From: Sarea resinae
Lineage: Eukaryota
Length of the DNA stretch: 29,408 nt
NCBI GenBank assembly: GCA_026026165.1
Contig: JAPEUD010000061.1
Span: 124,001-153,408 of the forward strand
Reading direction: 5' to 3'
Made by a program: the position numbers and the translations under genes
In this document: positions 9,514-29,282 of the stretch, one piece after another
Numbering within the stretch: the first letter of the stretch is position 1
Layout of the letters: each line of letters begins with the position of its first letter
Notes under the pieces: generated by a model
The model's input: the letters and a program-made list of their open reading frames with translations, nothing else
What the model was told of the DNA's origin: nothing
Databases searched by the model: none

Positions 9514-10029
9514 TATCAGAACCCTCAGACCAGCGATTCAAATGGGATCGGAAGGGCTTGGAATAACGCAACAATCTATACGAGACAGGAGAGAGCAGAG
9601 AAGACAAGAAGCGCAGCGGCCTATAATGCGATGAAACGAGGAGAAAAAGAGGAGAGGACAGCTTCCAGCGTTGGCATTATCGGCAGGGCTCTATCTACAT
9701 GTCTTTTCCCAGATCTAAGCTACAAAGAGTTTCTCGCTGAAGACAGGCAAGTGCGACCGGAGAGTGGTGTACTGGCGATCCAGCAAGGTGTTCTCGTTGC
9801 GGATTTCGACCCTGGCTGAAGGTAGACCACCAGGTTCCTTTTCCAAGTCTCTCGCGCTGATTGGTAAACACGAAAACAATTATATCGATAGTCATTCTAT
9901 CTCCTCCTTTATTAGTGAAGCCTATTGAAGCCTATGCTTGTACTAATTGAAAATAAAAAGTTAGCTAGTAATTTCGGCCCCTTTGTAGGGCGATCATCGC
10001 GCTAGGTAACCCTAGTGGCCGCGCCAGTT

Positions 10030-11032
10030 CAGAGTGTCCACTTAGGTACCCACTAGGCGGGTAGGGGGTCACGTACCCGCCTACCCGTGGGTAGCAGGTA
10101 CCTATAGCAGTACATACCCGCCTGATAGGACCCGATAGGTGGGCTTAGGTACCTATCATGTGACTTTTTCATAGGTACGTACCTATTATGTAATCACAAG
10201 ACAGGTACGTACCTATCCTTAATGCTAAATTGCTAAGGATATAGATAGGAATTAATTACCTATATAAGAATTAAGCGAATTTTAAACAATAAGAGGTAGA
10301 TAAGAATTAAGATAGGAATTACCTTAGAGTTATATATTTTATTAACAATTTAGAAGAGTTAAGCCTTTAACCTCCTAATAAAAGTTATAGTATTTAATGC
10401 AATAAATTATCTAATATTATTAGATTAATAGAATTTTATAAAAAAGTAGTTGTATTACACTTATTATAACTCTAAGCTTTATATAAAAGCTACTACTAAT
10501 AAAGGTGCTATATATAGCTTAGTATAGTAAAAAGTAACTACTTAGTATAGTTTAGTAATATTTAGGTAAGCTAAGTAGAGTTATTAGTTATATAGATTAA
10601 TAGAGGTGCTAGCTATTAGAGCTAGTGTTTAGTGCAATTATAAAGTTAGTACCTATTAGTAATATCTATAGTATTAGTTCTATATTGCTAGAGTAATACT
10701 AGCACACTATAATATACTAGCCTATTTAATTATACTATTTCTCCCTACTCTACTATAGCTAGAAGTCTAAAAAGTAGGCTAATAATTCTAAACACTCTAC
10801 TAATATAGTAATAGACTAGGTAAGATAGTAATAATTAATATATATAATACTATAAGGGCTTTTAACTCTTTACTAAGTAAAAGAGCTAATAGAGATAATA
10901 GTAAGATAATAGCAAGCTAAGTAGAAAGTAAAGTTAAGAAGCTTATCTCTAACTAAATTACTAATTAATTACTAGACTAAATATAGTAAAAGTATAACGC
11001 TAAAGAGTAGTAGGCTTTATATTATTAACTCT
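10030..11032 (+). mobile_element. hAT-like DNA transposon left end and 5' fragment A (RIPped, truncated by copy B)
   Basis: Begins CAGAGTGTCCACTTAGGTACCC; a CAGAGTG terminus is known from the fungal hAT Restless. GGTACC subterminal repeats follow, and the same terminus recurs at 11033 and 15735. No transposase could be read. Confidence 0.55.
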
Positions 11033-11163
11033 TAGAGTATCTACTTAGGTACCTACTAGGTAGGTAGAGAGGTATATACTTGCCTACTTATAGGTAGTAA
11101 GTACTTATAGCAGTATATACTTACTTAATAGAACCTAATAGGTAGGCTTAGGTACCTAAGGTA
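11033..11163 (+). mobile_element. hAT-like left end B (~130 bp, truncated by TLH copy 1)
   Basis: Colinear RIP-variant of 10030-10153. Confidence 0.6.
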
Positions 11164-11467
11164 CCTAACTATATTGCAGGCTATAATCTAAGTAGGATTA
11201 TATAGTATATTTCTTTACTACTTACTGCTAATTAGCTAGCCTAGCTAGTAGAAAGTAGGATTATAACAAGTAGAATTATAATTATAAGAATCTTATAAAA
11301 CATTGCTTTTAATATTGCTAGCCTAATTACTAACCTTTTAGCAACTACCTTTCTATATAACTTAATTAATTCTCTTTTACTATTACTATTATTCTAGCCT
11401 ACTTAACCTTCTAGGGTTTGTATAACCTTAGTTAGAGCTACTTTCTACTTATACCTTAACTAAGTCT

Positions 11468-11504
<37 letters not shown>

Positions 11505-12015
11505 CTATTTACTAGAGGTTCTAGAGGCTTTTTTTAGGCTATTTAGGCTAGATAGTAGCTGTAGCAGTTAACTAGTTACACTATAGAGGTAACTATTAGG
11601 TGCTGCTCTATAGTTAGTTTTATTACACTATTAAGAACATTATATAGTATCTAGAGTATAAGTATATACTGCTACTAAAGAAGTATAGGTAAATTATAGT
11701 AGGCTTATATAACTACACTTTAGCTAGACTATATAAGGTGCTCTTACTCTTAAGAAATAGCCTAGCCTTTATAGCTCTTAAAGAGCCTTTAAATAGCTTT
11801 AAATATAATAATTACAATTAATATAGCTATATTAGTGTAAGTTAGATAGTAATATAATAATATTGTAACTAAAAACACAACTAGTAAGTAAGTAAGTAGA
11901 ACCTAAAGTATTAGCACCTAATTAAAGTGTAGACTTTCTTTAATAGTAGTAGGCTACAGCGATATTTTCTAGTCTAGCTAGTAGAAAAAAAGCATAAGAG
12001 AGAGAGGAATAATAA

Positions 12016-12046
<31 letters not shown>

Positions 12047-13133
12047 AAGAATAATAATTGACTCTTATTACTGCTAGGCTAAGTAGCCTTAGACTACTTA
12101 GCTAGTTAGATCTAGCGCGAATTTAATGCTTAGCAGACTATATATAAGTAGAGTTAGGCTTTAATTAAGAGTAAGATATAGAAGACTAATTAGATAGGCT
12201 AGTTTAGTTGCACTAGCTAGCTAACCTACCTATGTTATTAGAATATAGCCTACTTTCTTTACACTAGTAAGCTTTTAAACTAGTGACTTAGCTAGTAGTA
12301 GTAGTAAGAGTAGTAGTAGTAATAAGAGTAAGATTTTAACTATATCTTAAGCTAAGTAGCTAAGGTTACTTACCTAATAATTAAGCGCTATATAGCTAGG
12401 CTAATAACCTTGCTATATAAGCTCTACTACTAGCTATATAGTAAGAAGTATACTAAGGTGTATCTAAAGCTATTAGGTTAGCTATAGAGTGCTAAGGCCT
12501 AGGTACACTATACTAACTATTAAGTGTGTCTAATCTGCTACTACTTATATATCTTTACTTACTACACTTTTACTATAGCTAATAATAATAATACAGCTAA
12601 TATATAGCTAAAAGATACTAATAAATTGCTGTATCTAATAGCAAAGCAGAATAAGCGCCTATAGGCTATCTAAAAGTCGCTTAAGCTAGATAGTAATAAG
12701 TCTTTATAGGTTAACTAAGTCTTTACCTTCTTATAAGCGCTAATCTTTCACCTACTACTACTAGTAGACTCTTTTAATAGCGTGCTAATCTACTTCCTTA
12801 CTATACTTAGTATTAACTCTCTTACTAATTAGCTGTATATAGTAATACATTACTCTTACTAGCTAGCTAGAGTAGTCTACTATATATAAGTGATTAGAGC
12901 TAAGGTGCTTCTACTAGTAGTAGTGTAGTAGTAGTAAGGCCTAGCTAAGTAGAAGCGCTTCTTAGCCTAGTATAAAAGATTCTTTACTAATAGCTTACTA
13001 AGCCTAATAAGTATAATAATTAGCCTGCTTATATACACTAAGTATATTAGTATATAGCAGCTAAGTATAGCTATAACAAGCTAGGCTAATAATGCTTAGT
13101 TGTTACACTTCTATAGTAAGCTAATTATAATCG
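11164..13133 (+). mobile_element. TLH element copy 1 (3'-truncated, heavily RIPped); ORF remnant ~11552-13136
   Basis: End motif CCTAACTATATTGCAGG, conserved module 11164-11456, (ACTA)n tract, then a DUF3505-like and downstream coding remnant colinear with 21123-22678. Confidence 0.88.
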
Positions 13134-14624
13134 CCTAACTATATTGCAGGTTGCTATTCTACTTAGATTATATAGTATATACTCTTACTACTTAACGCTA
13201 ATTAGCTAGCTAGGCTAGTAGAAAGTAGGATTGCATTAAGTAGGATTATAATTTAAAAAGTCTTGCTAAACGTTGCTTTTTTCGCTGCTAGCTAGATCTT
13301 TAACCCTTAAGCAGCTACCTTTCTATATAACTTAATTAATTTCCTCTTACTATTAAGGCTGTTCTAGCCTGCTTAATCTTTTAGAGCTACTTAACCTTAG
13401 TTAGAGCTACTTTTAACTTGTACTCTAACTGCATTGCAACTACACAACTAAGCAAGCTAGCTAGTAAGCGCGCTCTTAGGTAATAGCTATATATAACCTC
13501 TAAGTAACCTATAGTAGTATTGCTACTTAGAGCTCTACTACTAAATCGCTACTAATAGACTAGTAGAGCAACTACTAAGTAATTTATAGTAGTGTCTCTC
13601 TTTCTTATAGTAACTCTTAGTAGTAGTATTCTAACTACATTATAGGTTGCTATTCTATCTGCTCTAAGAGCTAGTTAATAATTATACCTCTAGATAGTCT
13701 AGAAGAAAAACCTCTCTATATACTATATATATATACTTTACCTACCTACTTTACTTACCTACTATTTTAGCTAGCTAGGCTAGCCTAATAATCTATAGCA
13801 GCAAATTAAATAGTATAGCTAAAAGACTCTTAGTAGTATCCTTAGAAGTAAAGTAAGCCTACCTATAGTAGCATTACTAGGTAACCTATAGTAGTATACC
13901 TTAACTACTTATTACTACTAACTAGCCTAGCCTAGCTAGCAGAAAGTAGAAAGGCAAGTAAAAGAGGATTATAGCTATATAAATACTGTAAAAGATTGCG
14001 TTAAACACTATACTACTAGCCTAGTAGCTAACTCTTTAGCAGCAGTTGTTCTATATTACTAACTTAATTAATTATCTTTATTATCTTCTCTACTATTAGT
14101 ATAGTGCTGTTTTTACTTGCTTAACCTTCTAGAGTTAAGTTGCTAGGCCTTAGTTAAGGCTACTCTACTTTTAACTTATACCTCTACTAGAATCTCTCTT
14201 TAACTAACTAACCTAGCTAGGTTCTAAAGGCCTTTACTCTAAATAGTAGCTGTAGTAGTTAACTAGTTACACTATATAGGTGACTATTAAGTGCTGCTCT
14301 ATAGTTAGCATTATTACACTGTTAGGAACCTTAATTAGTATCTAGAGTATTAGTATCTGTTGCTACTTAAGCAGTGTAGGCAAATTGTAGCAAGCTTATA
14401 TAACTACACTTTAGCTAAACTATATAAGGTGCTGTTACTGCCTAGAGATAGCCTTGCTTTTACAGCTCTAAGAGAGCCTTTAGAAGCCTTTAAATGCAAT
14501 AATTATAATTAATGTAGCTATATTAGCGTGAGCTAAACAGCGATACAGTAACATTGTAACCTAAAACATAACTAGTAGGTAAGTAGGTAAAACTCTAGGT
14601 ATTAGCACTTAATTAAGGCCTAGA
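13134..14624 (+). mobile_element. TLH element copy 2 (3'-truncated); ORF remnant ~14243-14627
   Basis: End motif CCTAACTATATTGCAGG, two modules (13134-13426, ~13920-14183), palindrome at 13687, and a Zn-finger coding remnant near-identical to 11552-11935. Confidence 0.88.
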
Positions 14625-15734
14625 CCTAACTGTATTGCACTAGGTAAAAACACTGTCTTCTTACTAATCTTTGCCTCTTTAAGGCATTAAACTAAGCCTA
14701 AGCAAGAATTAACAATGCTTTCTTAACAGTGTTTTTACACCTGTTAAAAAACGCCCTCTACCTACTAACCTAACTACCTTAATAGCTGCCTTAATCTTTA
14801 CCTACACACTTACTCTTTGTTTTGTTTAATTACTAGCCTACTAGCGTTAATTTCCTACCCTTAGAGTTGCCTTATCCCTTAGAGTTACTTAGAGTTCTAA
14901 GGTATATTAAGAGGTGATTGTAGCTAGCTAAGGCAGACTAACAGCGCACTTTGCCTCTAGCGCCTATATAGCGCTCTAAGGAAAGAAGAAGGCTTGCTTG
15001 CGTCTAATCTACTAGCCGCTGTTTAAAGATTAAAAAACTTCTTAATAGTCTAGAAGAAAAAGCTCTCTATATATATACACTATATCTGCCTAGCCTGCTA
15101 GCTATTTAGCTAGCCTAGCTAGTAAAATCTACTAGAAGAGTTTAAGTATCACTTAGAGTTAAAAGAAGATTAAGAGGTTATTACAATGAGCTAAGGTATA
15201 CTAACTATACACTTTACCTATAGTAGCGCTACTACTACCCTTAATAACTAGTAGCAGCAGCTGTAGCAAGCAGTGTAAAAATAAGAGCAATAAGAGTAGT
15301 AAGAGAAGTAAAAGAAGTAGTAAGAGAGATTAGGATTAAGATTAAGATTAGGATCGCAATTATTATTATTCTACTATAAGCTAAACTATTAGGTCCTAAT
15401 CTGCTATTAATATAGCTACACTCTTTAAAATATAGACTGCTACTTAAAGGACAGTTATATAATGCTAGCTAAAGAGCGATATCTACTTAGAGTGTAGTAT
15501 TAAGGCTATAGCCTACTTAATCTATATACTATACCTTTGCTACTACTAAATTACCTTGTATTTCCTACTCTAAAGGCACCTACTAATAGCTTTACCTATT
15601 AAGACTATAGTTTTAGCATAGTAAATCGCTAGATTATATAGAAGTATAGTAATAAGCAGTACACTTAGTTTGCTAATTAAGAGAAAGAAAAAGAAAAAGA
15701 CTTGCTAAATTAGCAGCTAGTTCTAGTGCAGACC
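14625..15734 (+). mobile_element. TLH element copy 3 (divergent variant, 3'-truncated); DUF3505-like remnant ~15360-15734
   Basis: End motif CCTAACTGTATTGCA, degenerate palindrome at 15038, and de-RIPped reading ...YxxDYQVLIC..HGY.L....HLK..H...WQRVxVQT. Confidence 0.75.
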
Positions 15735-17246
15735 TAGAGTGTCTACTTAGGTACTTACTAGGTAGGTAGAGGTAGAAGAACCTACCTAGGTATAGGTATT
15801 AAGTACCTATACCCTAATTAACCTACCTAATAAGACTTAGTAAGTAGGTATAGGTACTTATTATATAATATAAAGATAGTAGCTAAAATAGCATAGATAG
15901 TAAGGCATGTTTTATAGAGCATTAAAAAGCTGCTATTACTCTATAAATATTACCTATATATATTACTAAGTCTATTAAGTCTTTATTATAGACTAAGTAA
16001 AGTAAAGACTAAAAATACTAAAAGGTAGAGAAAAACTATAAGCCTCTTATAACTTCCTATAACCTGTGACTAGAAGACTAGAAAAGCTCTAATTATATCT
16101 CTAATTATATCTCTAATTGCATCTCTAATTGCACTACTAGGACTAGTAAAACCTTAGAGCTAATACTATAGAAACTTAACCTATATATTACTAGAGATCT
16201 AGATACTAAAGCCCTTTATTAAAGCCTTAATAAACTAAGTGTCTTTATAATTAATAGTTATACAGTTCTAATAAATGCAGGCCTAAAGCATATCTAGAAA
16301 AATTAAGTATAGAATAGAAAAAGAGATAGAAAAACTCACTTTTAAAGAACCTAACTATAAAAGCCTTAGTGGCTTCTTATAAGGCATATATAGCTAATAA
16401 CTAAAAACAAAGCTCTTTAAAGAGGTAGTAGTAATAAGATATAACCTTACAGACTAGGCGCTAGAAAGAGAGCTTTAGAATAACTAAATTAATAGATTTT
16501 TACAATCTCTTAATTTTATAGAGTGCAGATACTATAGTGTTTAAATGTTACTATAATATATTACCCTTAGAGTTTAGAGACTAAGACTTACTACCTAGAT
16601 AAGTGTAACAAGGTTAGATTAGTTTAGGCACACTATAAACCTTACTATAACTATAAAAGGCAGTATCTTTATAAACCTATGCTTTTATAGTATCTTTATA
16701 GGCCTTTTAGCGTTTAGTATATGTGCTAGTAGTAAAGCGTTATCTAGTAGTAAGATAACCTTTATATGCTGCTATACTAGCTAAGTTCTTATATAGGGAT
16801 TTGCTACTAGTAATACAATAAGCCTTAGCAGTAGATATTCTTTTACCTTTTCCTTTTCTTTTTCTACTAGTACTAGAGACAGTCTTATAAGCAGTACATT
16901 TAGTACAAGCTATTATCTAGTAAAATGTTACTATTAAGTGTCTAGTAGAGGTAAGAAAGAATAACTTACTGTATTAGTAACTATAATTATGTTAAGAGAG
17001 TAAGAGTATAGTGTAGAGAGTGCTAAAGGAGAATCTTTAGTTAGTATTAAAGAAAGAATCTAGAGAGTTGTTTATAGTTAGGAATTATTAGCTAAGTGTC
17101 TTTATAGTCTTAAATGTTACTTAAATGTGTTACTATTAAGTAGTAGTTCTTAAACTTACTTTAACCTTAAAACTTAAAGAGTACTAAGAGAGAAATCTTA
17201 ATAATGCTAATAATAGAAGTAATAAAGTTTATTAAGTCTTATTAGT

Positions 17247-17593
17247 TTAATAATAGAAGTGATAAAGTTAATAAGAGAGAGTAATTCTCTTGCTATAGGA
17301 GAAGGTTGCTAATAATATAGGTAGTAAGGTTAAATTAAGTAGTAGACCTATATAATATTAAGGTAAATATTTACTGCAAGGTATATACCTTAGTTAGTGT
17401 TATTAGCTAGTTAATAAGGTATATACCTTGTAGTAAATGTTATTAACTAATTAATAAGGTATATACCTTCTGCTTAAATCTTATATACCTAGTTCTACTA
17501 TGTAATTCAACCTTACTACCTATATTATTAGCAACTTTCTTCTATATAAAGAGAAGTGCTATTTTTTATTAACTCTATTACTTCTATTATTAA
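17247..17593. repeat. Long imperfect inverted repeat (foldback), ~100-bp arms with an inner hairpin
   Basis: 17247-17350 is reverse-complementary to 17490-17593 (e.g. GTTGCTAATAATATAGGTAGTAAGGTT / AACCTTACTACCTATATTATTAGCAAC). Inner pair ATTTACTGCAAGGTATATACCTTA / TAAGGTATATACCTTGTAGTAAAT. Confidence 0.85.
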
Positions 17594-17882
17594 TATTATT
17601 AAGATTTTATTAATTTTATTAATCCTATTAACTTCTTAACTGTTTAGGTAGTAGAAAGTTATAAGATAGATAGTTAATTACTTCTATTATTAATATTATT
17701 AAGATTTTATTAATTTTATTAATCCTATTAACTTCTTAACTGTTTAGGTAGTAGAAAGTTATAAGATAGATAGTTAATTACTTCTATTATTAATATTATT
17801 AAGATTTTATTAATTTTATTAATCCTATTAACTTCTTAACTGTTTAGGTAGTAGAAAGTTATAAGATAGATAGTTAATTACT
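17581..17882 (+). repeat. Tandem repeat, ~100-bp unit x3
   Basis: CTTCTATTATTAAT...GATAGATAGTTAATTA repeated essentially identically at 17581, 17681 and 17781. Confidence 0.95.
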
Positions 17883-18041
17883 CTTTAAATCACTTATATC
17901 ACTTATAAGCTCTTTTTAGAATAAGGCAGCTATAGAGAATACTAGCATTATAAAGAAGAGGTGAGTTTTAAACTTCTAAGTAAGATAAAGTAAGGTAAAA
18001 CTAACTTCTTCTTAGAAACTATAGCCTACTAGCAGCTTAGG

Positions 18042-20617
18042 CCTACCTGCATTGCAGCCCCTGATCCTACTAGGATTAAGGAGACGTACTAGGTACGTAC
18101 CCTGACCGCCTGGCCCCTGATTAGCCTGCCCTGCCAGCAGAAAGTAGGATTAAGCAGAGTAGGATCGAGCAATTGCTAGCGCGTCGAAATCGCCTCCTAA
18201 CGCTGCTAGCCGCATCTCTAACCCTTAAGGAGCCGCCTTTCTATAGCACTCGATCGATTATCTCCTCTTGTTAATGCTGTTTAGGCCTGCGCAACCTCTC
18301 TAGGGTTAGTGCTTAACCTTAGTTAGGGCTACCTTCTACTTGTACCCTAGACTGCATTGCTACTAAGAGCGACTAGGCAAGCAAGCAGGCGCGCCCTAGG
18401 TAACCCCCCCCCCTCTCTCTCTAGTGGTATATCCCTAGGTAACCCTTAGTAGTATAAGCTACCTTTTTTCTGAAATAGCGACTGACTGACTAACTAACCT
18501 AGTAACTAGTCAAGCGCGCCCTAGGTAACCCCTAGTAGCACCTTAAGGGAAGCAAGCCTTAGTAGTATCCTAACTGCATAGCTAGTCGCTATCCTATCTA
18601 ATGCAGCTGTTTAACAATTAAACTTCTAGACAGTCTAGCAGAAAAACCTCTCTCTAGGCTGCAGGCGCCTTGCCTGCCCTGCTTGCTAGCTATTTAGCTG
18701 GCTAGGCTAGCGAAATAATAAATGATCCTAAGCAGGCGTCTAGTGTTTGTTTGTTAACTGCCTAGCGCGCGCGCGTCGCTAATTAGCTAGCCTAGCTAGC
18801 AGAAAGTGCAATTAAGGTAGTGCATAGGATTAAGCTGACGCAAAACTAGTAAGACATTATATCTAACGCTGCTAGCCTAATCTCTGACCTATAGGCGGCA
18901 GCCTTCCTATGTACAACTAGATTAATTATCTCCTACTACTGTTAGAGCTGTTCTAGCGTGCTTAACCTCTTAGAGTTGCAAGGCCTTAGTTAGAGGCTAC
19001 CTTTAACTTGTACCTTCTACTAAATCCCCTTAGTTAGTCGCAGCAAGCAAGCGCGCGCGCCCTAACAATCTATTACTATTACTATTACTATTACTATAGC
19101 GGCTGCGGCAGCTGCTGCTACTACAACTATTGCAGTAAACTAGCTAGTCTATAAACTAGATTATTAGGTGCTACTATGCTAGCAACATAGTTATGCGATT
19201 CAGAACCTTAACTAGCATCTTAAGCATTATTATAGCATGTTAGCAAAGCAGCGGCGGCTGATTGTAGCTAGCCTGCGCGATTATATCCTTACTTAACTGC
19301 AAGACATCTGATTACTGCCAGTTAATAGCCAGCTGTTTCTAGCATTAGGAACGCTACTAGACGCCTTTTAATGCGATGATTTTAACTAATATCGCTGTAT
19401 CAGCGTTAGTCGACTAGCGATGCAGAAGCATTGCAATAAGCAGCACTACTAGCAGGCTAGCCAGCTGAAAAAAGCGACACATTAGCACTTAGTAAGAGTG
19501 CAGACCTTCTTTAACAGCTGTAGACTGCAGCGATATTTCCCTATACAGCTGCTGCTAGCAGATTAAAGAGAGCATGCTTTCTCTTTCTCTTCCTCTTCTT
19601 CTTCTTCTTCTTTTAACTCTGAGCTAGGCCGCTCAACTAGGTTGCCTACGCAGTTAAGTCACAAAGACGCTAACATAGTAAGCTAGATCTAGCGTGAATT
19701 CAATGCTTAGCAGGCCACGCACAAGCAGAGTCAGGCCCTAATTAAGAGCAAGGTGCAGAAGACTAATTAGACTAGCTAGTTCAGTCGCACAGGCTGGCCG
19801 ACCCACCTGCGCTGTCAGAATATAGCCTACCTTCTCTACACTAGCGAGCTCCTACTAAACTAGCGACTTAGCTGGCGGCAGCAGCAAGGGCAGCGGCAGC
19901 AGCAAGGGCAAGATTTTAACCGCATCCTAAGCTAGGCGGCTAAGGTCACCTGCCTAATAATTGAGCGCTGTGTAGCTAGGCTAGCGACCTTGCTGCACGA
20001 GCTCTGCCGCTGGCTGCGCAGCGAGAAGCGCACTAAGGTGCATCTAAAGCTATTAGGTCGGCTGCAGAGCGCTAAGGCCTAGGTGCGCTATGCTAACTAT
20101 TAGGCGCGTCTAATCTGCTACTGCCTGCGTGTCTTCGCCTACTGCACCTTTGCCGCGGCTAACAACGACAATGCAGCTAACACGCGGCTAAAAGATGCCG
20201 ACAAATTGCTGCATCTAACGGCAGAGCAGAACAAGCGCCTGCAGGCTATCTAGGAGTCGCTCGAGCTAGATAGCAACGAGTCCTCGTAGGTCGACTAAGT
20301 CCTTGCCTTCTCGCAGGCGCTGATCTTTCACCTACTGCTGCTAGTAGACCCCTTTGACAGCGCGCTGATCTACTTCCTCGCTGTGCTTAGCATTAACCCT
20401 CTCACTGATCAGCTGCACACAGCGACGCACTACTCCTACTAGCTAGCTAGGGTAGTCTACTACATGCAGGTGATTAGGGCCGAGGCGCTCCTGCTAGCGG
20501 CAGCGCGGCAGCGGCAGGGCCTGGCTAAGCAGAAGCGCTTCCTAGCCTAGCGCAAGAGATTCCTCGCCAACGGCTTGCTAAGCCTGATGAGCACAATGAT
20601 CAGCCTGCTTGCATACG
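18042..20617 (+). mobile_element. TLH element copy 4 (3'-truncated, moderately RIPped); ORF remnant ~19096-20617
   Basis: End motif CCTACCTGCATTGCAG, two modules (18042-18347, ~18780-19015), palindrome at 18623, and coding remnant colinear with 21123-22574. Confidence 0.9.
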
Positions 20618-21122
20618 CCTAACTGCATTGCAGGCTAGAATCCTACTACGATTCCACGGTACGTACTCCTACTGCCAGGCTCGCGACCGCGCCAGATTAG
20701 TTGCTAGGCGGCAGAACCCACTAGGATTCTAGCGGTTGAATTCCACCGGCCTACCACGCCTAGAAAACCCCTTTCCAAGCCTACATCGCTATCGCCGCCA
20801 CCCTGCCAACCTGATCGCACACGACCGCCACCCTCTAAACGTCCTTGTGGCTCTTCTAAGACGCCGTCGTTGATTTAGGGTTATGTGGCCTTAGTTAGGG
20901 TTAAGTTAGGGCTACTTTTGACGACGTACCTACTAGGCAGGCGCGCGCCGCCCACGACTGACTGAGCTATTCAAGCAGGCTAGAACGCAAGCAAGCAAGG
21001 GTAGATTCTAACTCTACACTAGAAGGACCTTTATCTATCCTAGAAGAGAAGAGAGGCAAGTGCAACGATTAAGGAGAGAGGGCCTATCTTATCAGATAGA
21101 AGAACGTAAAGGAAGAATCTAA

Positions 21123-24100
21123 ATGGTGGAACTAATTGCTGCGCTAGACTAGCTCTTATACAGGGCTGATTATCAGGTGCTCCTTTGCACCTAGCACTAT
21201 ACCGCGGTGCGCAACCTTAGCTAGCATCTTAAGCATTAGCATAGGCTGTCTGCCTGCTAGCGCTAGCCTATTAAAGCGGCATTACATGAGCAAGTCTGGC
21301 TGCTGCTAGCAGAGGTGCGCATCCCCCCTTTAGGTATTCTGCTATTTGCCGAGCTTAGGAGACTGCTTAATGCCTTTTAATGCTAGGAATGTGATTATAT
21401 CTCGATCAATTGTAAGGGCATTCGCTAGCATTGCAATCGACAGCATTAATAGTATGTGACTAAGGGTGAGACTAAACATTAGTCGCCTGTGAAGGTGCAA
21501 ACCTTTTTCTGTAGGCAAGGCCTAGAGCGCTATTTCGTGGTGGCCTAGGCTGAGCGTGACAATCCTGCGTCAACAAACAGTAGAGGGCTACTTGCACAGA
21601 CTAGAATAGATAGAGATCTAGCTGTAGACGACCAGCTTAAGCAAGAATTAAGCTCGCAGATCTAGCGCGAATTTAGTGCCTAGCAGGCCGCGCAGGAGCA
21701 GAGGCAGGCGCACTTTAAGAGCAAGGTGCAGAAGACTGATTAGACAGGCTAGTTCAACTAGACTAGTTAGCCAACCCACCTACAACGTTGAAACCTTAAA
21801 CACCTTCTCTATGCTAGCTAACTGCCTGATAACTAGCCGCGACATAGGCGGCGGCGGCGGCGGCCCTTGCTAGAGGATAGGTTGGACCGCATTATGAGCC
21901 AGGCGGCTAAGGTCACCTGACTTATGATTGAGCGCTGCGTGGCTAGGCTTGCAACCCTACCTCTTAAGCTCTGCTGCTAGCTGCGTAGTGAGAAGCGCAC
22001 TAAGGTCTATCAGAAGCCATTGGGTCAGCTGCAGACCCCTAAGGCTCAGGTGCGCTATGCCAACTATTAGGCGCGTCTGATCTGCTATTGCCTGCGTGTC
22101 TTCGCCCACCGCACCTTCGCGGCGGCCGATGCACCCCTGGACGCGCGGCTGCAAGATGCCGACGAATTGCTGCATCTGACAGCAGAGTAGAACAAGCGCT
22201 TGCAGGCTGTCTAGGAGTCGCTCGAGCTGGATAGCGACAAGGCCTCGCAGGTCGACTGAGTGCTGGCCTTCTCGCAGGCGCTGATCTTTCACCCACTGCT
22301 AGTAGACCCCTTTGACAGCGCGCTGATCCACTTCCTCGCAGTGCTTAGCATCGACCCTAATACTAATCGGCTGCACACAGCGACAGGCTACTCCTACTAG
22401 CTAGCCAGGGTGGTCTACTGCGTGCAGGTGATCAGGGTCGAGGCGCTCCTGCTAGCGGCTAGGCGCGAGCAGCAGGGCTAGGCCGAGCGAAAACGCTTCC
22501 TAACCTAGCGCAAGAAGTTCCTCGCCAATGGCTCGCTAAGCCTGATAAGCACGATAATCAGTCTGCTAGCATACAGCAAGTACATCGGCACGCAGGAGCC
22601 TAGCACAGCGACAACAAGTTAGGCCTAGGATAGTGCTCTGTCGCTGCGCTTCTGTGGCAAGCTGATTGTGATCGCCTACTTCTAGCAGATAGCGCACTAG
22701 GTCATCAAGGCGGCTAAGGCTATCCTCTAGCAGGAGCTTATGTGGTGCAGTAAGGCGAAGGACTGCTTCACAGTCGACCTTGCTGGCATCAAAGACAACA
22801 TAGCTTTCACTAAGCAGGATTGGTCCTTCCTTAGCAACCTAGCCAACCGGCTCGATCAGGGGCTCTCCTAGATAGTGGCGCGGGTAGTGCGCATGGCCTA
22901 GAACTTCTAGACAGTCTAGAAGAAAGAAAGAGAAAGAAGACCCCTCTAACAGCGCGACAGCACCGGCTAGGAACCCAGCCCAGTTAAGGACTACTGCTGG
23001 CAGGTGCAGGCCTTTCTTAAGCTGCTCCTCTTCAGCTGCTATATGACTAGGGGCTAGCCTAGCTGTAGCACAGAGGAGTTGTTGGTCCGGCATCGCAACA
23101 GCCTGCTGCAGGATCGCAATGTCTACGTGGTAGATAGATTAGTAGTGCTAGTGACCCGCTACTATAAGAGCTAGGCCTAGTACAATACACCTAAGGTGGT
23201 GCCGCGCTTTCTGCCCTAGCGAGTCAGCTAGCTCATAGTTGTCTACCTAGCCTACATGCGGCCGTTCTATAGCCACCTGCAGACGGCTGTCAGGATCGGT
23301 AGGGGGCTCGACAATGAATTTATCTAGGGGACAGCTGAAGGGCAGCTGTAGCTAACAGAGCGGCTGACCTGAGTCATCAGCTAGGAGACAGCCACGCGGT
23401 TAAAATGTCGGCTGACTACGCTAGACTACTGACATGTGGCTATCACTATTGGCTAGGAATTCGTGGGCTAGGAATTCGCTGCAAGAGAGGAGCGAGCCCT
23501 GCATAGGGGGGACAAGGCTAAGGATGTAGAGGAGCTGCAGTTAGAGCGGGAGGACGAACTCAAGCTCTAGACTAGGCACACCACTGCTACAGGGCAGACT
23601 CGCTATAGGGTCTCTAGGGATATCGTCTGCAATCTTAGCGCCTGCTCTCTCAAGGTGTTTAGCTAGGTCAGTCAGGCGTAGCATGCATTCCTGCAGCTTG
23701 ACAGCGGTAGGAGCCTAGCCGCTCTAAGGGATCAGAGAGGGTCTAAGCCTGAGCCAAAGCGAAAGCTAAAGCCAAAGCAGAAGTAGGAGGAGGAGGAGGA
23801 GGAGGAGGAGGAGGAGGAGAAAGCGCTGAAAGAAGAGGAAGACTAAGAAGAAAGAGAAGAAACAAGAGTGCTAGTGGTTAGCTGTGGCTGCTGCAAGCGG
23901 TTTTAGCTGCTGGCAGACAATAATAGTTCGAGGCAGGAGATCGATGTCGACTTAGACAAGGTGGTTGCTAGCATGCAGCAAGTGCTGCAGTGTAGTCAAG
24001 TGGAGTTTAAATCGGCTGAGCAGCGAGTGGCATTGCAAGCGATCTTGCAGCACAAGACCCTAACTGTAGTAGTGCTGCCTACTAGAGGTAGGAAGAGCTT

Positions 24101-25739
24101 GCTGTTCATGCTACCCGCTTGGCTCAAGCAACAGCGGCAGGAGAGAGGGCAGCAAGGGCCGCGGGTGACAGTGGTGGTGGTGCTGTTCTGTGCCCTAGTG
24201 AACAATCTAGTAGGCTGGTTGCAGCAGGTCGGCATCAACAGTCTCGAGTAGAAGCACAGCGATAGCAGCTTCGCTGCAGTAGTAGTGGTTAGCGCCGATC
24301 TCGCTAGTGGGTCGGGTTTCTTAATGTACGCCACTGTGCTGCAGCGCTACAGTCTGCTGCAGCGGATCGTCGTGGACGAGTGTCATCTGACGTTCACAGC
24401 CAACGATTACCAGCCGCGGCTCAACGATCTTAAGCATCTGCAGACGATGATGTGCCTGATGATACTCCTAACCGCGACCCTACCGCCAGCTCTTAAGCGG
24501 GAGCTAGCCGACAGCATGCTGATGCCGATAGCGCGGTGCATCTAGGCCTGCACGATCTGACTACAGACCTGCTATCTAGTGGTGCGGTGCGAAGATAGCT
24601 AGCTGCTTAAGAGCGCGGCGCATCTCTGCTGACAGCAGCTGCAGCAGCGACTGCAGCGGCAAGGAAAAGAGGTGGTCTACTGCTGAACGCAGGCGGCATG
24701 CGAGGCATTAGCTGACACGCTACAGTGCAGCTACTATCACTTAACGTCAGAGGACAAGGAGCGCTAGCTTAGGCGGTGGATATCTAAAGGGGGCTAGATC
24801 GTCGCTACAGGCGCGCTTGGCACTAGGGTCGACTACGGCAGGATCTTAATGACAGTGCATGTAGGCGTGCTGTATAGGATGATCGACTTCGCGCAGGAGT
24901 CTAGGCGGGCCAGACAAGGTGGCGAGGACGTGGATGCGGTCGTGCTTGTAGAAGCTAGCGAGCTCAGGGGACCAGTGCAACCGCAGCGGCAGGGTAGCGG
25001 CGGGTCAGCGGCGGCGGCTGTTGTAGAGCGTACTGTAGACCAGCAGGCGATGTAGGAATTCATGACGACTTAGGGCTGCTAGCGGCAGATCATAAGCGGC
25101 TATCTAGACAGAAAGGGGGTCTGGTGTAGGGAGGTCGATCAGGGCAGGGCGGCACAGTGCGATCGATGTAGAGAGGGCTTGACTGAGTGGCAGACTAGCT
25201 AGGCTGAAGGGGAGCGGCAGCGGGCTATAGTCAAGGAGGCACTCAACTAGCTCAAGGGGCAGTGCGCTGTCTGCTAGGTGGTAGAGAGGCTCAAGGAAGG
25301 GGTTAGGCAGGCGGAGCGGTAAGAGCATAGCTGGCACCAATGCCTGCAGCAGGGCGCACTGAGCAAGCAGGCTGTGGATAGCTTCTGACAGAAAATCCGG
25401 TTCTGAGAGGACTTGCAGGAGAAGACACACAGCTGCTTTCGATATAGCATCAGTCAGCGGTATTGCCAGACTAGGACTGACACTTAGGCCAGCTGTCAGT
25501 GGCTGAATCGACTGGTGCTGATTGTGCAGACAGTGGCAGCAGAGGCAGGAGGCAGCGCTAAAGGGTGGGAACTGATCTAGAAGGTCGGATTTCTTAGGGA
25601 GCAAAGGGACATAGAAGGATACAGCAAGTGGCTTAGGCAACGGCACATCTGGCGGGTGTAGGGAGAGTGGATTAGTAACGCGATAGTAGTGATAATCGAA
25701 GTGATTCTGTCTCTTTAGAGAGAGCTAGCAAGAACTTAG
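21123..25739 (+). pseudogene. Telomere-linked RecQ-like helicase (TLH) with DUF3505-like Zn finger and tyrosine-recombinase-like domain; inactivated by RIP stops
   Basis: ATG 21123 and ORF fragments 23961, 24285 and 24849 are all in one frame. Helicase motifs: LPT(G)G(G)KSL, VVDECH, LTATLP, VVYC, VATGALGT(G)VD, FAQES(G)RA, RecQ-type Cys cluster GC...C...CDRC and a further C-terminal Cys cluster. Native stop is at 25718 or 25739 (ambiguous because of RIP). Confidence 0.92.
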
Positions 25740-25894
25740 ACGTCGCTCTTAAGGCGGTTTAAAGTCTAATACAGCGGTTAGAAGATAAAACTTCTAGACT
25801 GTCTAGAAGAAAAGGCTTTAGGTTAGAGCAATAGAGTAGTAGTCAACCTGTGGTCAACCTGTAGTTAATCTGTTTAAACACCTGTTTAAATACT

Positions 25895-26555
25895 AGTAGG
25901 CAACCCGCCTAGTAGGCAACCTGCCTAGTAGGTAACTAGTAGGCAACCTAGTAGGTAACTAGTAGGCAACCTAGTAGGCAACCTAGTAGGCAACCTGTAG
26001 GCAACCCGCCTAGTAGGTAACCCGCCTAGTAGGCAACCTGTAGGTAACCTGTAGGCAACCTGTAGGCAGCCTAGTAAGCAACCTGTAGGTAACCTGTAGG
26101 CAGCCTAGTGAGCAACCTAGTAGGCAGCCTAGTAAGCAACCTGTAGGCAACCTGTAGGCAGCCTAGTGAGCAACCTAGTAGGCAACCTGTAGGCAGCCTA
26201 GTGAGCAACCTAGTGGGCAGCCTAGTGAGCAACCTAGTAGGCAACCTGTAGGCAGCCTAGTGAGCAACCTAGTAGGCAACCTGTAGGTAGCCTAGTAAGC
26301 AACCTAGTAGGCAACCTAGTAGGCAACTTGTAGGCAACCCGCCTAGTAGGTAACCCGCCTAGTAGGCAACCTGTAGGTAACTTGTAGGCAACCTGTAGGC
26401 AGCCTAGTGAGCAACCTAGTAGGCAACCTGTGGGCAGCCTAGTGAGCAACCTAGTAGGCAACCTAGTAGGCAACCTGTAGGCAACCTGCCTAGTAGGTAA
26501 CCTGCCTAGTAGGCAACCCGTGGGTAACCTGTGGGCAGCCTAGTAGGCAACCCGT
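25895..26555 (+). repeat. Minisatellite of 11-16-bp variants of CCTAGTAGGCAA
   Basis: Roughly 50 units (CCTAGTAGGCAA, CCTGTAGGCAA, CCCGCCTAGTAGGTAA, CCTAGTGAGCAA) with higher-order blocks. Confidence 0.95.
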
Positions 26556-27359
26556 TTGAACACCTGTTTAGACACTGTTAGGCAGCCTGTTTCAAAGCCT
26601 GTTTAAAAGCCTAGTGGTTAAAACCTAGCAGGCAAGCCGTTAGAAAAGCCGTTAGTCAACCTGTTAATTAGTTAGTCAATTGAGTATTTAAATTGTGAAC
26701 CTGTTAATTAGTTAGTTAGTTAGTTAAGCTGTTAACCTGCAGAAGCTGTAGGGTGCCTGTTTAGCGGCAGAGAGTTTATAGTGGATTTTACATGTCAGAC
26801 CTAAAACATCAGGTGAGAAGATTCAAATGCAAGTAGAAGAGTAAAGATAGTTTGATTAAAGAGGTGTATTATAATGGATTGCGCAAAAGGAGAGAAAAGA
26901 GTTATTCGATTTTAATCGAAATACAACAAAAATAATGACAATATTAAAGAGAGAGGTAAAGAGATACATATAAAAGATACATTTCAGAAATAATATTATA
27001 GATTATTTACAAGATACAGATAGATTATAGAAGGTAGAATGATTAGTAATAGAGGTAGTAGAGATATTTCAAGCGGTTAAAATCAAGGAAATAAAGGAGA
27101 TTACATATAAAGTAGGAGTGTAAAGCAATAGAGTTAGGCTTGAGTTTAGGGTTGTAGAATAGTGTACAAGTTTAAAGGGGTAGTAAAGGGTAAGGTTTTA
27201 TAGTAGTAGCGAAGAGAATAGAATGCAAGTAGTAGAAGAGAGTAAAGGTTAAAGGGGTAGAAAATAGAGTGAGATTTAAGTAGTAGAGAGAGTGAGAGTT
27301 TAAGATTAAGGTAAGAAGAGAGGTTTAGGATTAAGTTAGTAAGATCGAGTTCGAGTTTA

Positions 27360-29090
27360 ATGCAGTAGAAAAGGGTTTAGGTTTAAGGTAGTAGGAGAGG
27401 GTTTGAGTTTGAGGCAGTAGGAAAGGGTTTAGGTTTAAGGTAGGAGGAGAGGGTTTAGGTTTAAGGCAGTAGGAAAGGGCGAGGGTTTAAGGTAGGAGGA
27501 GAGAGTTTAGGTTTAAGGCAGTAGGAAAGGGTTTAGGTTTGAGTTTCAAGCAGTAGGAGAGGGGTTAGGTTTAAGGCAGTAGGAGATAGTTTAGGTTTAA
27601 GGCAGTAGGAAAGGGTTTAGGTTTAAGGCAGTAGGAGAGGGTTTGGGTTTAAGGCAGTAGGAGAGGGTTTGAGTTTGAGGTAGGAGGAGAGGGTTTAGGT
27701 TTCAGGCAGTAGGAAAGGGTTCGAGTTTCAGGCAGTAGGAAAGGGTTTAGGTTCGAGGTAGTAGGAGAGGGTTTAGGTTTAAGGCAGTAGGAAAGGGCAA
27801 GGGTTTAAGGTAGGAGGAGAGGGTTTAGGTTTAAGGTAGTAGGAGAGGGTTCAGGTTTAAGGCGGTAGGAAAGGGTTAGGATTTAAGGCAGTAGGAGAGG
27901 GTTCGGGTTTTAAGCAGTAGGAAAGGGTTCGAGTTTAAGGCAGTAGGAAAGGGTTTAGGTTTAAGGCAGTAGGAGAGGGTTTAGGTTTGAGGCAGTAGGA
28001 AAGGGCGAGGGTTTAGGGTAGTAAGAGAGGGTTTAGGTTTAGCAGTAGGAGAGGGTTAGGTTTAAGGCGGTAGGAAAGGGTTTAGGTTTGAGGCAGTAGG
28101 AAAGGGTTTGGGTTTAAGGCAGTAGGAAAGGGTTAGGGTTTAAGGCAGTAGGAAAGGGCGAGGGTTTAAGGTAGAAGAAGAGGGTTTAGGTTCGAGGCAG
28201 TAGAGAAGGGCAAGGGTTTAAGGTAGGAGGAGAGGGTTTAGGTTTAAGGTAGTAGGAGAGAGTTCAGGTTTGAGGCAGTAGGAAAGGGTTCAGATTTAAG
28301 GCAGTAGGAGAGGGTTCGGGTTTTAAGCAGTGGGAAAGGGTTTGAGTTTAAGGCAGTGGGAAAGGGTTTAGGTTTAAGGCAGTAGGAGAGGGTTTAGGTT
28401 CGAGGCAGTAGGAAAGGGCAAGGGTTTAAGGTAGGAGGAGAGGGTTTAGGTTTAAGGCAATAGAGAAGGGTTTAGGTTTAAGGCAGTAGGAAAGGGCAAG
28501 GGTTTAGGTTAAAGGCAGTAGGAAAGGGAGAGGGTTTAGGTTTTAAGCAGTAGGAAAGGGTTTAAGTACAAGGCAGTAGGAAAGGGTTTAGGTTTAAGGC
28601 AGTAGGAGAGGGTTTAGGTTCGAGGCAGTAGGAAAGGGCAAGGGTTTAAGGTAGGAGGAGAGGGTTTAGGTTTAAGGCAGTAGGAAAGGGCGAGGGTTTA
28701 GGGTAGAAGGAGAGGGTTAGGTTTAAGGCAGTAGGAAAGGGTTTAGGTTTAAGGCAGTAGGAAAGGGTTTAGGTTTAGGGTAGAAGGAGAGGGTTTAGGT
28801 TTGAGGCAGTAGGAAAGGGGTTAGGTTTAAGGCAGTAGGAAAGGGGTTAGGTTTGAGGCAGTAGGAAAGGGGTTAGGTTTGAGGTAGTAAGAGAGGGTTT
28901 AGGGTCAAGGCAGTGGGAAAGGGGTTAGGTTTAAGGCAGTGGGAAAGGGGTTAGGTTTAAGGTAGTAAGAGAGGGTTTAGGGTCAAGGCAGTAGGAAAGG
29001 GGTTAGGGTACAAAGCAGTGAGAGAGGGTTTAGGTTTGAGGCAGTAGGAAAGGGCAAGGGTTTGAGGTAGCAGGAAAGAGTTAGAGTTTA
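27360..29090 (+). repeat. Telomere-associated G-rich minisatellite, ~25-27-bp unit (AGGCAGTAGGAAAGGGTTTAGGTTTA)
   Basis: About 65 degenerate units, more decayed on the proximal side, containing GGGTT(T)AGG telomere-like cores. Confidence 0.95.
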
Positions 29091-29192
29091 AGGGAGTGAG
29101 AGCGAGTAAGAGTTTGTAGTAGAAAAGAGCAAGAACAAGAGTGTAAGAGTTGTAAAGTAGAGCAAAGCAAAGCAGAGTGAAACATTGCGCGA

Positions 29193-29282
29193 GCATTTGC
29201 ATTTGCGTTTGCGTTTGCGTTTGCGTTTGCATTTGCATTCACATTCACATTTGCATTCACATTCACATTCACATTCACATTC
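29193..29282 (+). repeat. Hexamer microsatellite (GCATTT/GCGTTT/ACATTC)n abutting the telomere
   Basis: About 15 six-base units directly joined to AGGGTT repeats. Confidence 0.9.

Follow-up and report, generated by a model that had tools for sequence, protein, structure and literature searches.

A non-coding module at the centromere-side edge of decayed telomere-linked helicase units at a chromosome end of Sarea resinae

What is the non-coding module that recurs six times near one chromosome end of Sarea resinae, and does it encode a structured RNA? The stretch of DNA analysed here (29,408 nucleotides, hereafter the window) had been described in a first-pass annotation as carrying six copies of a candidate structured RNA or folded single strand with covarying, crossing stems. 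Our analysis leads to a different reading, to which we assign a probability of roughly 75%: the module would be the upstream non-coding segment and the fixed edge of a unit that carries a telomere-linked RecQ-type helicase (TLH) gene, repeatedly laid down at this chromosome end and decayed by RIP-like mutation.

The window represents a fungal chromosome end, whose layout is marked by the following features:

9997-10190, + strand: junction element of ~190 bp (repeat family D16) at the border between unique DNA and subtelomere
25924-29283, + strand: tandem arrays between the TLH gene and the telomere, including a 12-bp unit at 25924-26552
27355-29097, + strand: tandem array of a 26-bp G-rich unit
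29236-29283, + strand: tandem array of CATTCA
29283-29408, + strand: terminal telomere, (AGGGTT)21, i.e. (TTAGGG)21, with 100% matches

The junction element recurs at 15702-15895 and, in truncated form (10999-11160), directly before the first copy of the module. A DNA sequencing run (X1) contributed 1661 contigs on 18000-23400 at 80% likeness or more, differing mainly by transitions, and thus many variants of a multi-copy family. These contigs cover all 30 of the 30 bins of that interval, module and TLH bins alike, and their cover of 20715-21800 is lower than elsewhere, a contig depth by which the parts of the unit cannot be ranked. None among the contigs listed spans this repeat-rich end, and two other runs of the same study hold next to none of the window's sequence words.

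The gene that follows the modules was recognised from the read-through translation of 20934-24530, which returned 2655 protein matches at E<=1e-3 (best 1e-164). All five homologues that were scanned contain OrsD, DEAD and Helicase_C, and homologue N-termini align to query residues ~64-75, which places the ATG near 21123. Searched as single open frames, 18000-25800 gave only a weak DEAD match in Pfam (E 4.6e-4). The terminal copy carries 74 stops in 20934-25100, those listed being nearly all TAG, and ends ~3.6 kb short of the terminal telomere repeats. All TLH copies in the window are pseudogenes; one is near-complete and at least four are truncated, each lying behind a module or a junction element. 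The pieces are as follows:

11541-13137, + strand: truncated TLH 5' fragment of unit 1, RIP-mutated, broken at the equivalent of ~22678
15358-15697, + strand: additional piece of the TLH start region, mutated by RIP, with the junction element of 15702-15895 behind it
19113-20616, + strand: TLH 5' fragment of unit 5, cut short at the equivalent of 22574 (tblastn 19135-20619)
21123-25709, + strand: terminal TLH pseudogene in one reading frame (tblastn 21153-25709)

A separate observation concerns the "TLH domain" of these helicases, for which a structure model (pLDDT 77.3, pTM 0.77) predicts a tyrosine-recombinase fold with the matching catalytic signature. The top 20 rows of a fold search with this model were all tyrosine recombinases or type IB topoisomerases (Z 10.4-5.5), headed by an archaeal Xer (Z 10.4, rmsd 2.9, 148 aligned) and followed by XerH, XerA, Cre and XerD (Z 8.4-9.0), with unrelated rows at Z of 3.5 or less; the top 11 rows of Foldseek were likewise all tyrosine recombinases, at weak E-values of 0.035 or more. 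Across the family rows that have the residue, the catalytic positions are retained as R in 107/112, K in 112/114, R in 109/112, H in 86/108 and Y in 109/109. The sequence profile of the domain produced one stray match among PDB chains (E 0.93) and no recombinase family in Pfam. As judged by fold and motif, the element is predicted to encode a tyrosine recombinase, on which sequence profiles are silent. No description of a tyrosine-recombinase fold for the TLH domain was found in the literature searched.

The module itself measures ~250-310 bp. Self-blastn placed five + strand copies between 11164 and 19026, the first two being 78.6% identical (11164-11461 versus 13134-13430, E 2e-64) and the remaining pairs 69-76%, and repeat families D13, D14, D18 and D20 fall on the same places. 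The sixth copy (20618-20932) gave no blastn HSP in the self-comparison of the window; its first ~90 nt are supported by a transition-tolerant diagonal scan (11149-11237 and 13107-13210 versus 20591-20694), with scores of 38.6 and 45.0 at a shuffle maximum of 24.8, and its pairwise alignment reaches 72% over 272 aligned columns, with 80 gap columns. It also carries the invariant CCTTAGTTA block. With self-blastn and repeat families for five copies, and diagonal scan and alignments for the sixth, all six copies first proposed are real:

11164-11461, + strand: M1, a RIP-mutated full-length copy with the TLH 5' coding part behind it
13134-13430, + strand: M2, a RIP-mutated full-length copy with a truncated TLH fragment abutting it on the left and segment Y on the right
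13887-14194, + strand: M3, ~75 nt short at its start, with the TLH start region of 14238-14670 behind it
18042-18350, + strand: M4, full length and least mutated, followed by segment Y at 18351-18777
18778-19026, + strand: M5, likewise ~75 nt short at its start; the TLH start region of unit 5 follows after ~87 bp
20618-20932, + strand: M6, full length and divergent, joined to a truncated TLH fragment on its left

The non-coding nature of the module was upheld as well. Of the 438 tblastn HSPs obtained with 150 TLH homologues, only 2 share 30 nt or more with a module, both of them nearly identity-free tails of alignments to the preceding gene fragment, and tblastn of seven TLH homologues covered no module; a decayed coding sequence was ruled out by these searches with TLH homologues. 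A metagenome scan with a two-block pattern of the module returned two loci, which were chance matches and had no blastn similarity to the window.

The window is heavily marked by RIP-like mutation, directional C>T/G>A, which acted lightly on 18-25 kb and heavily on 10-18 kb. Comparison of 12096-13036 with 19673-20616 revealed 222 C>T/G>A changes against 3 reverse transitions, with 5 transversions in 941 aligned positions, and mutation of 82% of CpA and 78% of CpG sites versus 13-15% of CpC/CpT sites. The blocks that had been taken as conserved are to be read against this background. In the six-way alignment 58 of 415 columns are invariant, and CCTTAGTTA is the sole invariant run of at least four columns; the blocks largely coincide with stretches poor in RIP-prone sites. 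Conserved columns among copies 1-5 amount to 70 of 128 for A/T, 30 of 88 for other C/G and 3 of 46 for RIP-prone positions, and the two best conserved blocks contain zero RIP-prone sites. The proposed stems consist of recurring short palindromic or repeated words: "stem A" is the recurrence of the palindrome GCTAGC, which is counted 49 times against 32.1 +/- 5.7 expected, with 48 of the 49 in 10.6-25.7 kb.

Divergence between units was compared for module and gene. Between units 5 and 6, identity is 65% over the 211 aligned positions of the module, where 45 transversions and 70 gap columns were counted, versus 82% in the coding part (53 transversions in 916), and, on such sequence comparison, the module appears to be under no special constraint relative to the coding part. 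Units 1 and 5 differ by 61 transversions in the 407 positions of the start region versus the 5 in 941 of the coding part that follows; these uneven counts may reflect a mosaic make-up of the units or a poor alignment of AT-rich sequence.

Each module stops 50-190 bp short of the start codon of a TLH gene broken by RIP, and the order of the unit is module, spacer of that length, telomere-pointing TLH gene, tandem arrays and telomere. The TLH start region aligns at 11541, 14238, 19123 and 21117, just past M1, M3, M5 and M6, with 190 bp between the end of M6 and the ATG of the terminal pseudogene; in two places the module is duplicated with segment Y inserted. The module forms the fixed centromere-side edge of the TLH unit, and truncation on the telomere side varies. 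Its four full-length copies begin within 2-3 nt of the same base, (C)GCCTAACTGCATTGCAGG, in four different left contexts: M6 follows a TLH broken at the equivalent of 22574 and M2 one broken at ~22678, M1 follows the truncated junction element, and M4 lies to the right of AT-rich DNA.

Such an arrangement indicates a TLH-bearing unit that was laid down several times at this chromosome end. Older units lost their telomere-side part at differing points, each next unit starting at the first base of the module, and the RIP-like mutation of all copies came afterwards. New units may have been attached by end capture or by recombination between chromosome ends. The module would carry the TLH promoter or 5' leader; a promoter, leader or boundary function is one that we purely infer.

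It counts against the preferred reading that random breakage with homologous repair would not be expected to yield a left edge recurring to within 2-3 nt. Telomere healing at the junctions was ruled out, as no canonical TTAGGG tract was found between a truncated TLH and the next module; the first module bases, CCTAAC, resemble the C-strand repeat but stand in the wrong orientation. That the junctions, unlike those of the Fusarium arrays, are without a canonical TTAGGG tract, and that the telomere-like tract begins only ~255 nt into the module, also counts against the preferred reading in its account of unit attachment. Target-primed reverse transcription onto the chromosome end is unlikely. 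As with telomeric retroelements, the units have their intact end towards the centromere, but such a process would require a transcript antisense to TLH, a reverse transcriptase was not observed, and the sequence at the unit end is not complementary to the G-overhang.

Two features inside the module bear on its possible role, and are given here for M6:

20634-20733, no strand assigned: inverted repeat of M6, with perfect 12-bp arms at 20634-20645 and 20722-20733
20861-20930, + strand: degenerate telomere-repeat-like tract in the 3' part of M6, with TTAGGG at 20875, 20895 and 20906

The perfect 12-bp inverted repeat pointed out at first pass is real, and homologous arms of 17 nt occur in M4 (18063-18079 and 18150-18166, 82%). 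An inverted repeat near the left edge is present in 4/4 full copies, with one G:C to T:A double change, and its retention is not predicted by simple decay. The telomere-like tract, which has its M4 counterpart at 18281-18360, is oriented as the terminal telomere, and the 3' parts of the module are the most TTAGGG-like windows of 1-25700 (scores of 20 and 15; mean 4.6, sd 1.6). By analogy with a proposal for the repeat block upstream of Magnaporthe TLH genes, the degenerate TTAGGG tract and the TAGGAT/ATCCTA repeats may represent putative protein-binding sites, for a TTAGGG-binding factor or as boundary or promoter elements, with the CCTTAGTTAGGG block as a candidate site for a TTAGGG-binding Myb factor.

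Cryptons are eukaryotic tyrosine-recombinase DNA transposons with sharply defined ends and without terminal inverted repeats. We know of no helicase fusion or telomere association among them. Transposons of this type are named in PMC4522978. By comparison with such elements, fungal TLH units might be, or descend from, mobile elements with a fusion of tyrosine recombinase and RecQ-type helicase, in which the left ~130 nt of the module would serve as cis-acting terminus (a recombination or attachment site) made up of the exact edge, a small palindrome and the ATCCTA/TAGGAT inverted repeats, and the recombinase would join units to eroded ends or to broken or secondary sites. The fold matches and conserved R/K/R/H/Y of the TLH domain, the precision of the left edge, 2-3 nt across four contexts, and the 9-12-bp inverted repeat in the module are in line with this proposal, as is a CGCCTA common to the TLH sequence and the module start at one junction, although the second junction shares at most 1-2 nt. 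The small palindrome is found 20 nt in from the edge (GAATC-7-GATTC in M6, TAATC-7-GATTA in M1, TGATC-7-GATTA in M4, and weaker with a 6-nt spacer in M2); however, the junction falls ~20 nt outside the palindrome and not within its spacer, and known recombinase core sites have arms longer than 5 bp. The terminus is putative only, with no right end, recombination activity or target duplication known, the window's own TLH copies are all pseudogenes, and sequence profiles detect no recombinase family; the likeness to Cryptons consists here in the fold and motif of the TLH domain only. We therefore consider a mobile-element origin of this kind unlikely.

It is highly improbable that the module represents a structured RNA, an RNA gene or a folded single strand, such as a ribozyme, scaffold RNA or origin. 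About 85% of the cells of the proposed stems do pair (84.5-85%), one or two double changes preserve pairs, and the perfect inverted repeat of M6 has 9-10-bp counterparts in M1, M2 and M4. Nevertheless, the covariation claimed for the stems did not emerge: the scores of 0.118 and 0.125 lie below the shuffle means of 0.129 and 0.137, with 362/500 and 367/500 shuffles scoring as high, and only 1-2 of 22-23 pairs changed on both sides, in a test of low power based on six related copies only. The key pair of the covariation argument, GGCGGC 20707 with GCCGCC 20794, sits in non-homologous columns, as the alignment puts the M6 GCCGCC over the M4 GCCGCC at 18234 and not over CTGCTAGC at 18203. The crossing of stems in a pseudoknot received no support on the six copies. 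Moreover, the stems are made of the words GCTAGC and TAGGAT, which recur throughout, and the adjacent coding DNA is better conserved than the module.

Folding energies gave the same picture. Over the 415 columns, the RNAalifold consensus had an energy of -6.89 kcal/mol and a covariation term of -0.13, and the MFE z-scores of M4, M5 and M6 on both strands (-0.22 to -1.43; 40 dinucleotide shuffles per sequence) match those of the neighbouring controls (-1.28 to +0.22 for six strands of three segments). Rfam returned zero families at gathering score in the whole window; at E<=1 the interval 10000-23000 yielded mir-17 only (12891-12973, 23.6 bits versus a gathering score of 49.5), a chance match outside every module. 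Nothing in these tests, whose power is low, favours RNA structure. Thus, from the earlier proposal of a cis-acting structured element at the element end, the non-coding character and the fixed end were borne out, and the structured RNA or single-stranded DNA core was not.

We give next to no credence to the module as an LTR, whether solo or flanking a small non-autonomous retroelement, or as a repeatedly inserted SINE or MITE: its copy size lies within the LTR/SINE range and the succession of module, 1.7 kb and module (11164...13430) superficially resembles LTR, internal region and LTR, but the "internal" DNA is the TLH 5' coding part with break points that differ between units, the module begins with (C)GCCTAAC and not with TG, its right neighbour is constant (TLH start region in 4/6, segment Y in 2/6) unlike that of independent insertions, a tRNA-like head is absent (0 tRNA-like genes found), inverted repeats are internal and not terminal, and the X1 contigs cover module and TLH bins alike (30/30 in 18000-23400) at a depth that cannot rank the parts. 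Within this window, the hallmarks of LTR, SINE and MITE are lacking.

The structured-RNA call represents a false lead, in that islands free of RIP sites within RIP-mutated repeats mimic conserved blocks, and C>T-enriched words (CTAG, GCTAGC) produce what look like stems and conserved G-U "wobble" pairs; awareness of this is useful for discounting calls of this kind in fungal windows. With the module read as the fixed edge of the TLH unit, what remains would be a clear example of a subtelomeric unit with a helicase gene that, having lost its telomere side, was added again from one exact base. The predicted recombinase-fold TLH domain could recast widespread telomere-linked genes as mobile elements rather than host helicases.

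Several known systems invite comparison. Copies of the yeast Y' element are usually complete and have telomere-repeat tracts between them. To our knowledge, Y' proteins are only distantly related to TLH, and Y' elements are without a TLH-type recombinase-fold domain. The units described here resemble Y' elements, which are also cited in PMC4522978, in being helicase-encoding subtelomeric elements in tandem beside the telomere, which in yeast are spread among ends by recombination.

Closer parallels exist in filamentous fungi. The TLH-containing regions (TLHcr) of F. oxysporum, according to the reports on them (10.1101/2024.02.27.582403; PMC12857005), occur at many ends, single or in arrays, full or truncated, with telomere repeats flanking them. 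The chromosome end studied here shares with them a subtelomeric unit around a TLH gene, arrays, full and truncated forms, and RIP-type decay. In contrast to the telomere repeats on both sides in that account, the junctions here are without TTAGGG and a degenerate tract lies ~255 nt inside the module; a further difference from the Fusarium regions, as far as that account extends, is that every TLH copy in this window is a pseudogene.

A compound, helicase-associated repeat block of M. oryzae (HAR-CDEF) ends 181 bp before the TLH start codon and constitutes the "near boundary" of the subtelomere, as stated in PMC1635262. Compared by description, HAR-CDEF is a compound tandem array of short units, whereas the module consists of one unit of ~300 bp, duplicated in two places together with an insert. 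Like HAR-CDEF as described there (PMC1635262), the module is non-coding, stops no more than ~180 bp from the TLH start codon, forms a discrete centromere-side ("near") boundary of the subtelomere and has some telomere-like motifs.

The repeated module of about 300 bp, present in six plus-strand copies (M1 to M6), is the upstream non-coding block and the centromere-side border of a subtelomeric unit that carries a telomere-linked RecQ-type helicase (TLH) gene. The window represents a fungal chromosome end, with the terminal telomere as its last element, and its GC content falls to 23-35% within 10-18 kb.

Features of the window (coordinates, strand where assigned, description)
2280-3485, minus: gene for a PAP2-superfamily protein, unique part
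6142-6624, minus: alpha/beta hydrolase fragment, unique part
7813-9537, minus: gene in the unique part, whose matches to the Nal1 C-terminal and peptidase S64 families are weak and fall below the cut-off
9997-10190: junction element of ~190 bp, rich in TAGGTACCTA palindromes, at the border of the unique genes and the subtelomere
10999-11160: junction element, truncated, directly before M1
11164-11461, plus: M1, found by self-blastn and repeat finder
13134-13430, plus: M2, found in the same way
13887-14194, plus: M3, found in the same way, lacking its first ~75 nt
15358-15697: further piece of the TLH start region
15702-15895: second copy of the junction element, within the subtelomere
18042-18350, plus: M4, found by self-blastn and repeat finder
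18778-19026, plus: M5, found in the same way, lacking its first ~75 nt
20618-20932, plus: M6, found by transition-tolerant diagonal scan, the CCTTAGTTA block and pairwise alignment
~22990-23650, plus: "TLH domain", between zinc fingers and helicase
25924-26552: 12-bp array, unit CCTAGTAGGCAA, 52 copies
27355-29097: 26-bp G-rich array, 66.5 copies, strong GC skew (~0.8)
directly before the terminal telomere: CATTCA run
29283-29408: terminal telomere, 21 perfect AGGGTT units
9998-10026, 18389-18405, 18514-18530, 19052-19066 and 20930-20945: GC-rich word GGCGCGCC or GCGCGCC, then CCTAGGTAACCC or CCCTAAC

The units of the 26-bp and 12-bp arrays, which lie between the helicase gene and the telomere, both contain telomere-like GGGTTT / TAGG words. 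Outside the subtelomere, tblastn with three homologues (E 2e-7 to 3e-4) matched the second TLH zinc-finger motif to a short minus-strand stretch, 4824-4949, which possibly represents an unrelated OrsD-type gene.

All six copies reported in the first-pass annotation proved to be real. Pairwise identity among M1-M5 is 69-79%. M6 gave no HSP in self-blastn of the window; its first ~90 nt were recovered by the diagonal scan (scores 38.6 and 45.0 vs a shuffle maximum of 24.8), and the copy is further supported by the invariant CCTTAGTTA block and by pairwise alignment (72% over 272 columns, with 80 gap columns). The six-way alignment contains 58 invariant columns out of 415, CCTTAGTTA being the sole invariant run longer than 3.

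On the plus strand, one frame at ~21123-25709 reads as a long protein broken by stops (74 within 20934-25100, nearly all of those listed being TAG). Translated with X at the stops, 20934-24530 matched 2655 proteins at E<=1e-3 and 154 at <=1e-30 (best 1e-164), and the OrsD zinc-finger, DEAD and Helicase_C domains detected in all five homologues scanned match the make-up of fungal TLH proteins. Since the N-termini of homologues align at query residues ~64-75, the start codon is placed near 21123. Searches by tblastn with seven homologues located TLH at 21153-25709 together with a second, truncated copy at 19135-20619, and transition-tolerant alignment revealed four TLH start regions (11541, 14238, 19123 and 21117) directly after M1, M3, M5 and M6, respectively, so that each of these modules ends 50-190 bp upstream of a TLH start codon. 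The following ~940 bp of coding DNA is present three times (12096-13036, 19673-20616 and 21649-22574). None of the seven homologues extended over any module in tblastn, and among 438 HSPs from 150 TLH homologues (E<=1) two overlapped a module by at least 30 nt, both being almost identity-free tails of preceding-fragment alignments that reach 44 and 71 nt into M6. The module is non-coding, as had been proposed; decayed coding sequence was ruled out as its identity by these searches with 7 and 150 homologues.

The four full-length modules start within 2-3 nt of one common base, (C)GCCTAACTGCATTGCAGG, behind four different sequences, which bears out the earlier placement of the module at an element end. 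M6 is preceded by a TLH fragment with a break equivalent to 22574, M2 by a TLH fragment that breaks ~100 bp farther on (equivalent to ~22678) with CGCCTA common to both sides of the joint, M1 by a shortened copy of the junction element, and M4 by AT-rich DNA. One fixed edge behind four contexts indicates that units keep their centromere-side end, whereas the point at which the telomere-side part is lost varies; beyond it the next unit begins, at the module edge. Two pairs, M2-M3 and M4-M5, consist of a full module, a ~430-bp insert (segment Y) and another module that is shortened at its 5' end. TTAGGG was found at none of the unit junctions examined. The GC-rich word recurs at or near borders of repeat pieces, the tail of each less-mutated module among them; microsatellite-like (CTAA)n / GACTGACTGACTAACTAACC runs lie directly after M1 (11476-11518) and within segment Y (18480-18500).

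Relative to 19673-20616, the AT-rich 12096-13036 carries 222 C>T/G>A changes against 3 transitions in the reverse direction and 5 transversions. At CpA and CpG the changes affect 82% and 78% of sites, respectively, but at CpC/CpT 13-15%, a directional pattern of RIP-like mutation. In the sole DNA sequencing run containing this stretch, 1661 contigs with many variants matched 18000-23400 at >=80% likeness, and their differences (C>T 145, G>A 140, A>G 88, T>C 68, each transversion type 7-12) are mostly transitions, which points to a family that is multi-copy and RIP-like mutated genome-wide. Among M1-M5, conservation was found in 70 of 128 columns with A/T in M4, in 30 of 88 C/G columns not belonging to CpA/CpG, and in 3 of 46 RIP-prone columns. 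RIP-prone sites are absent from the best two blocks, AACCTYYTAGRGTT and CCTTAGTTAGGGCTAC, and the blocks thus lie largely where such sites are few. Between the TLH-bearing units 5 and 6, the module is 65% identical (45 transversions and 70 gap columns, 211 aligned positions) and the adjacent coding part 82% (53 transversions in 916). Judged from these alignments, the module is under no special constraint. It was copied along with the TLH gene and afterwards underwent RIP mutation. In the RIP-mutated stretch of lowest GC content (23%), three 100-bp tandem units (17577-17882) are 100% identical, which suggests that they expanded after the last RIP round; an inverted repeat (17230-17373 / 17467-17610) flanks them.

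Several features remain in the module. All four full copies share an inverted repeat on ATCCTAC / GTAGGAT at a matching position: the 12-bp perfect form noted earlier in M6 exists, and M4 has 9 bp, M2 10 bp with one mismatch and M1 a bulged 9 bp. M6 and M1 differ in it by one double change (G:C to T:A). TAGGAT occurs three times per module, and a small palindrome lies 20 nt from the edge (M6 GAATC-7-GATTC, M1 TAATC-7-GATTA, M4 TGATC-7-GATTA). Nothing else in the first 25.7 kb of the window is as telomere-like as the module's 3' part (local alignment to (TTAGGG)n: M6 20, M4 15; mean of all 60-nt windows 4.6, sd 1.6), which has the orientation of the real telomere, with TTAGGG at 20875, 20895 and 20906. 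The module may serve as promoter, leader or binding platform.

A further possibility concerns the TLH domain. Its motifs ARGTE, YHKS, YRHxA and GHx8Y (16 aligned homologues) resemble those of tyrosine recombinases; sequence profiles retrieved nothing in PDB or Pfam. For the AlphaFold model (pLDDT 77.3, pTM 0.77), the top 20 rows of a fold search against representatives were exclusively tyrosine recombinases and type IB topoisomerases (archaeal Xer Z 10.4, rmsd 2.9, 148 aligned; XerH 9.0, XerA 8.9, Cre 8.8, XerD 8.7/8.4), with unrelated rows at Z <=3.5; the top 11 Foldseek rows all came from those families, at weak E-values (0.035 or more). Across 153 domain rows from 150 homologues, counting rows with a residue at the position, the candidate catalytic residues are kept as R 107/112, K 112/114, R 109/112, H 86/108 (R in 18) and Y 109/109. 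The fungal TLH domain is accordingly predicted to have a tyrosine-recombinase / topoisomerase IB fold with an R-K-R-H-Y signature in 80-100% of rows, a likeness for which no description was found in the limited literature collection searched. Given this likeness, the sharply defined edge of the module may, with low probability, be a recombinase site.

The first-pass annotation read the module as structured RNA or single-stranded DNA with covarying, crossing stems, a reading that is not supported: six related copies offer little power, but none of the results speaks for a structured RNA. With its three helices mapped onto the six-copy alignment, ~84.5% of cells pair, one pair is altered on both sides, and the covariation score (0.118) lies below that of shuffles (0.129 +/- 0.020; 362 of 500 as high). 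When stem B is re-paired to better effect, 18063-18070 with 18159-18166, pairing is 85.0%, two pairs are double-changed and the covariation score is 0.125 vs 0.137 (367/500). The supposed replacement of GCCAGCAG / CTGCTAGC by GGCGGC 20707 / GCCGCC 20794 involves non-homologous columns: GCCGCC of M6 aligns to GCCGCC of M4 at 18234, and M6 has CCCCTTTC in the columns of CTGCTAGC. At the core of stem A is GCTAGC, a perfect palindrome that was counted 49 times in the window (expected 32.1 +/- 5.7, with every shuffle below 49), 48 of them within 10.6-25.7 kb; two copies in 300 nt are ordinary given this abundance. The RNAalifold consensus reached only -6.89 kcal/mol (covariation term -0.13), and MFE z-scores for plus/minus strands (M4 -1.43/-0.89, M5 -1.09/-1.29, M6 -0.22/-1.40) stand beside -1.28 to +0.22 for six control strands of three neighbouring segments. 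Rfam gave 0 matches at gathering score in the whole window and, at E<=1 within 10000-23000, only mir-17 (E 0.11), outside the modules.

The module repeat is real but ordinary as the border of a TLH-bearing unit, and parallels appear in published work. RecQ TLH genes have been recorded at telomeres affected by RIP in Leptosphaeria maculans (PMC3105345) and also in Mycosphaerella graminicola (PMC4522978). TLH-containing regions of F. oxysporum are described as single or in arrays, full or truncated, in agreement with our reading of the window's unit (bioRxiv 10.1101/2024.02.27.582403; PMC12857005). In M. oryzae, a repeat block with telomere-like motifs, the "near boundary" of the subtelomere, ends 181 bp upstream of the TLH start codon, a description that agrees with our reading of the module (PMC1635262).
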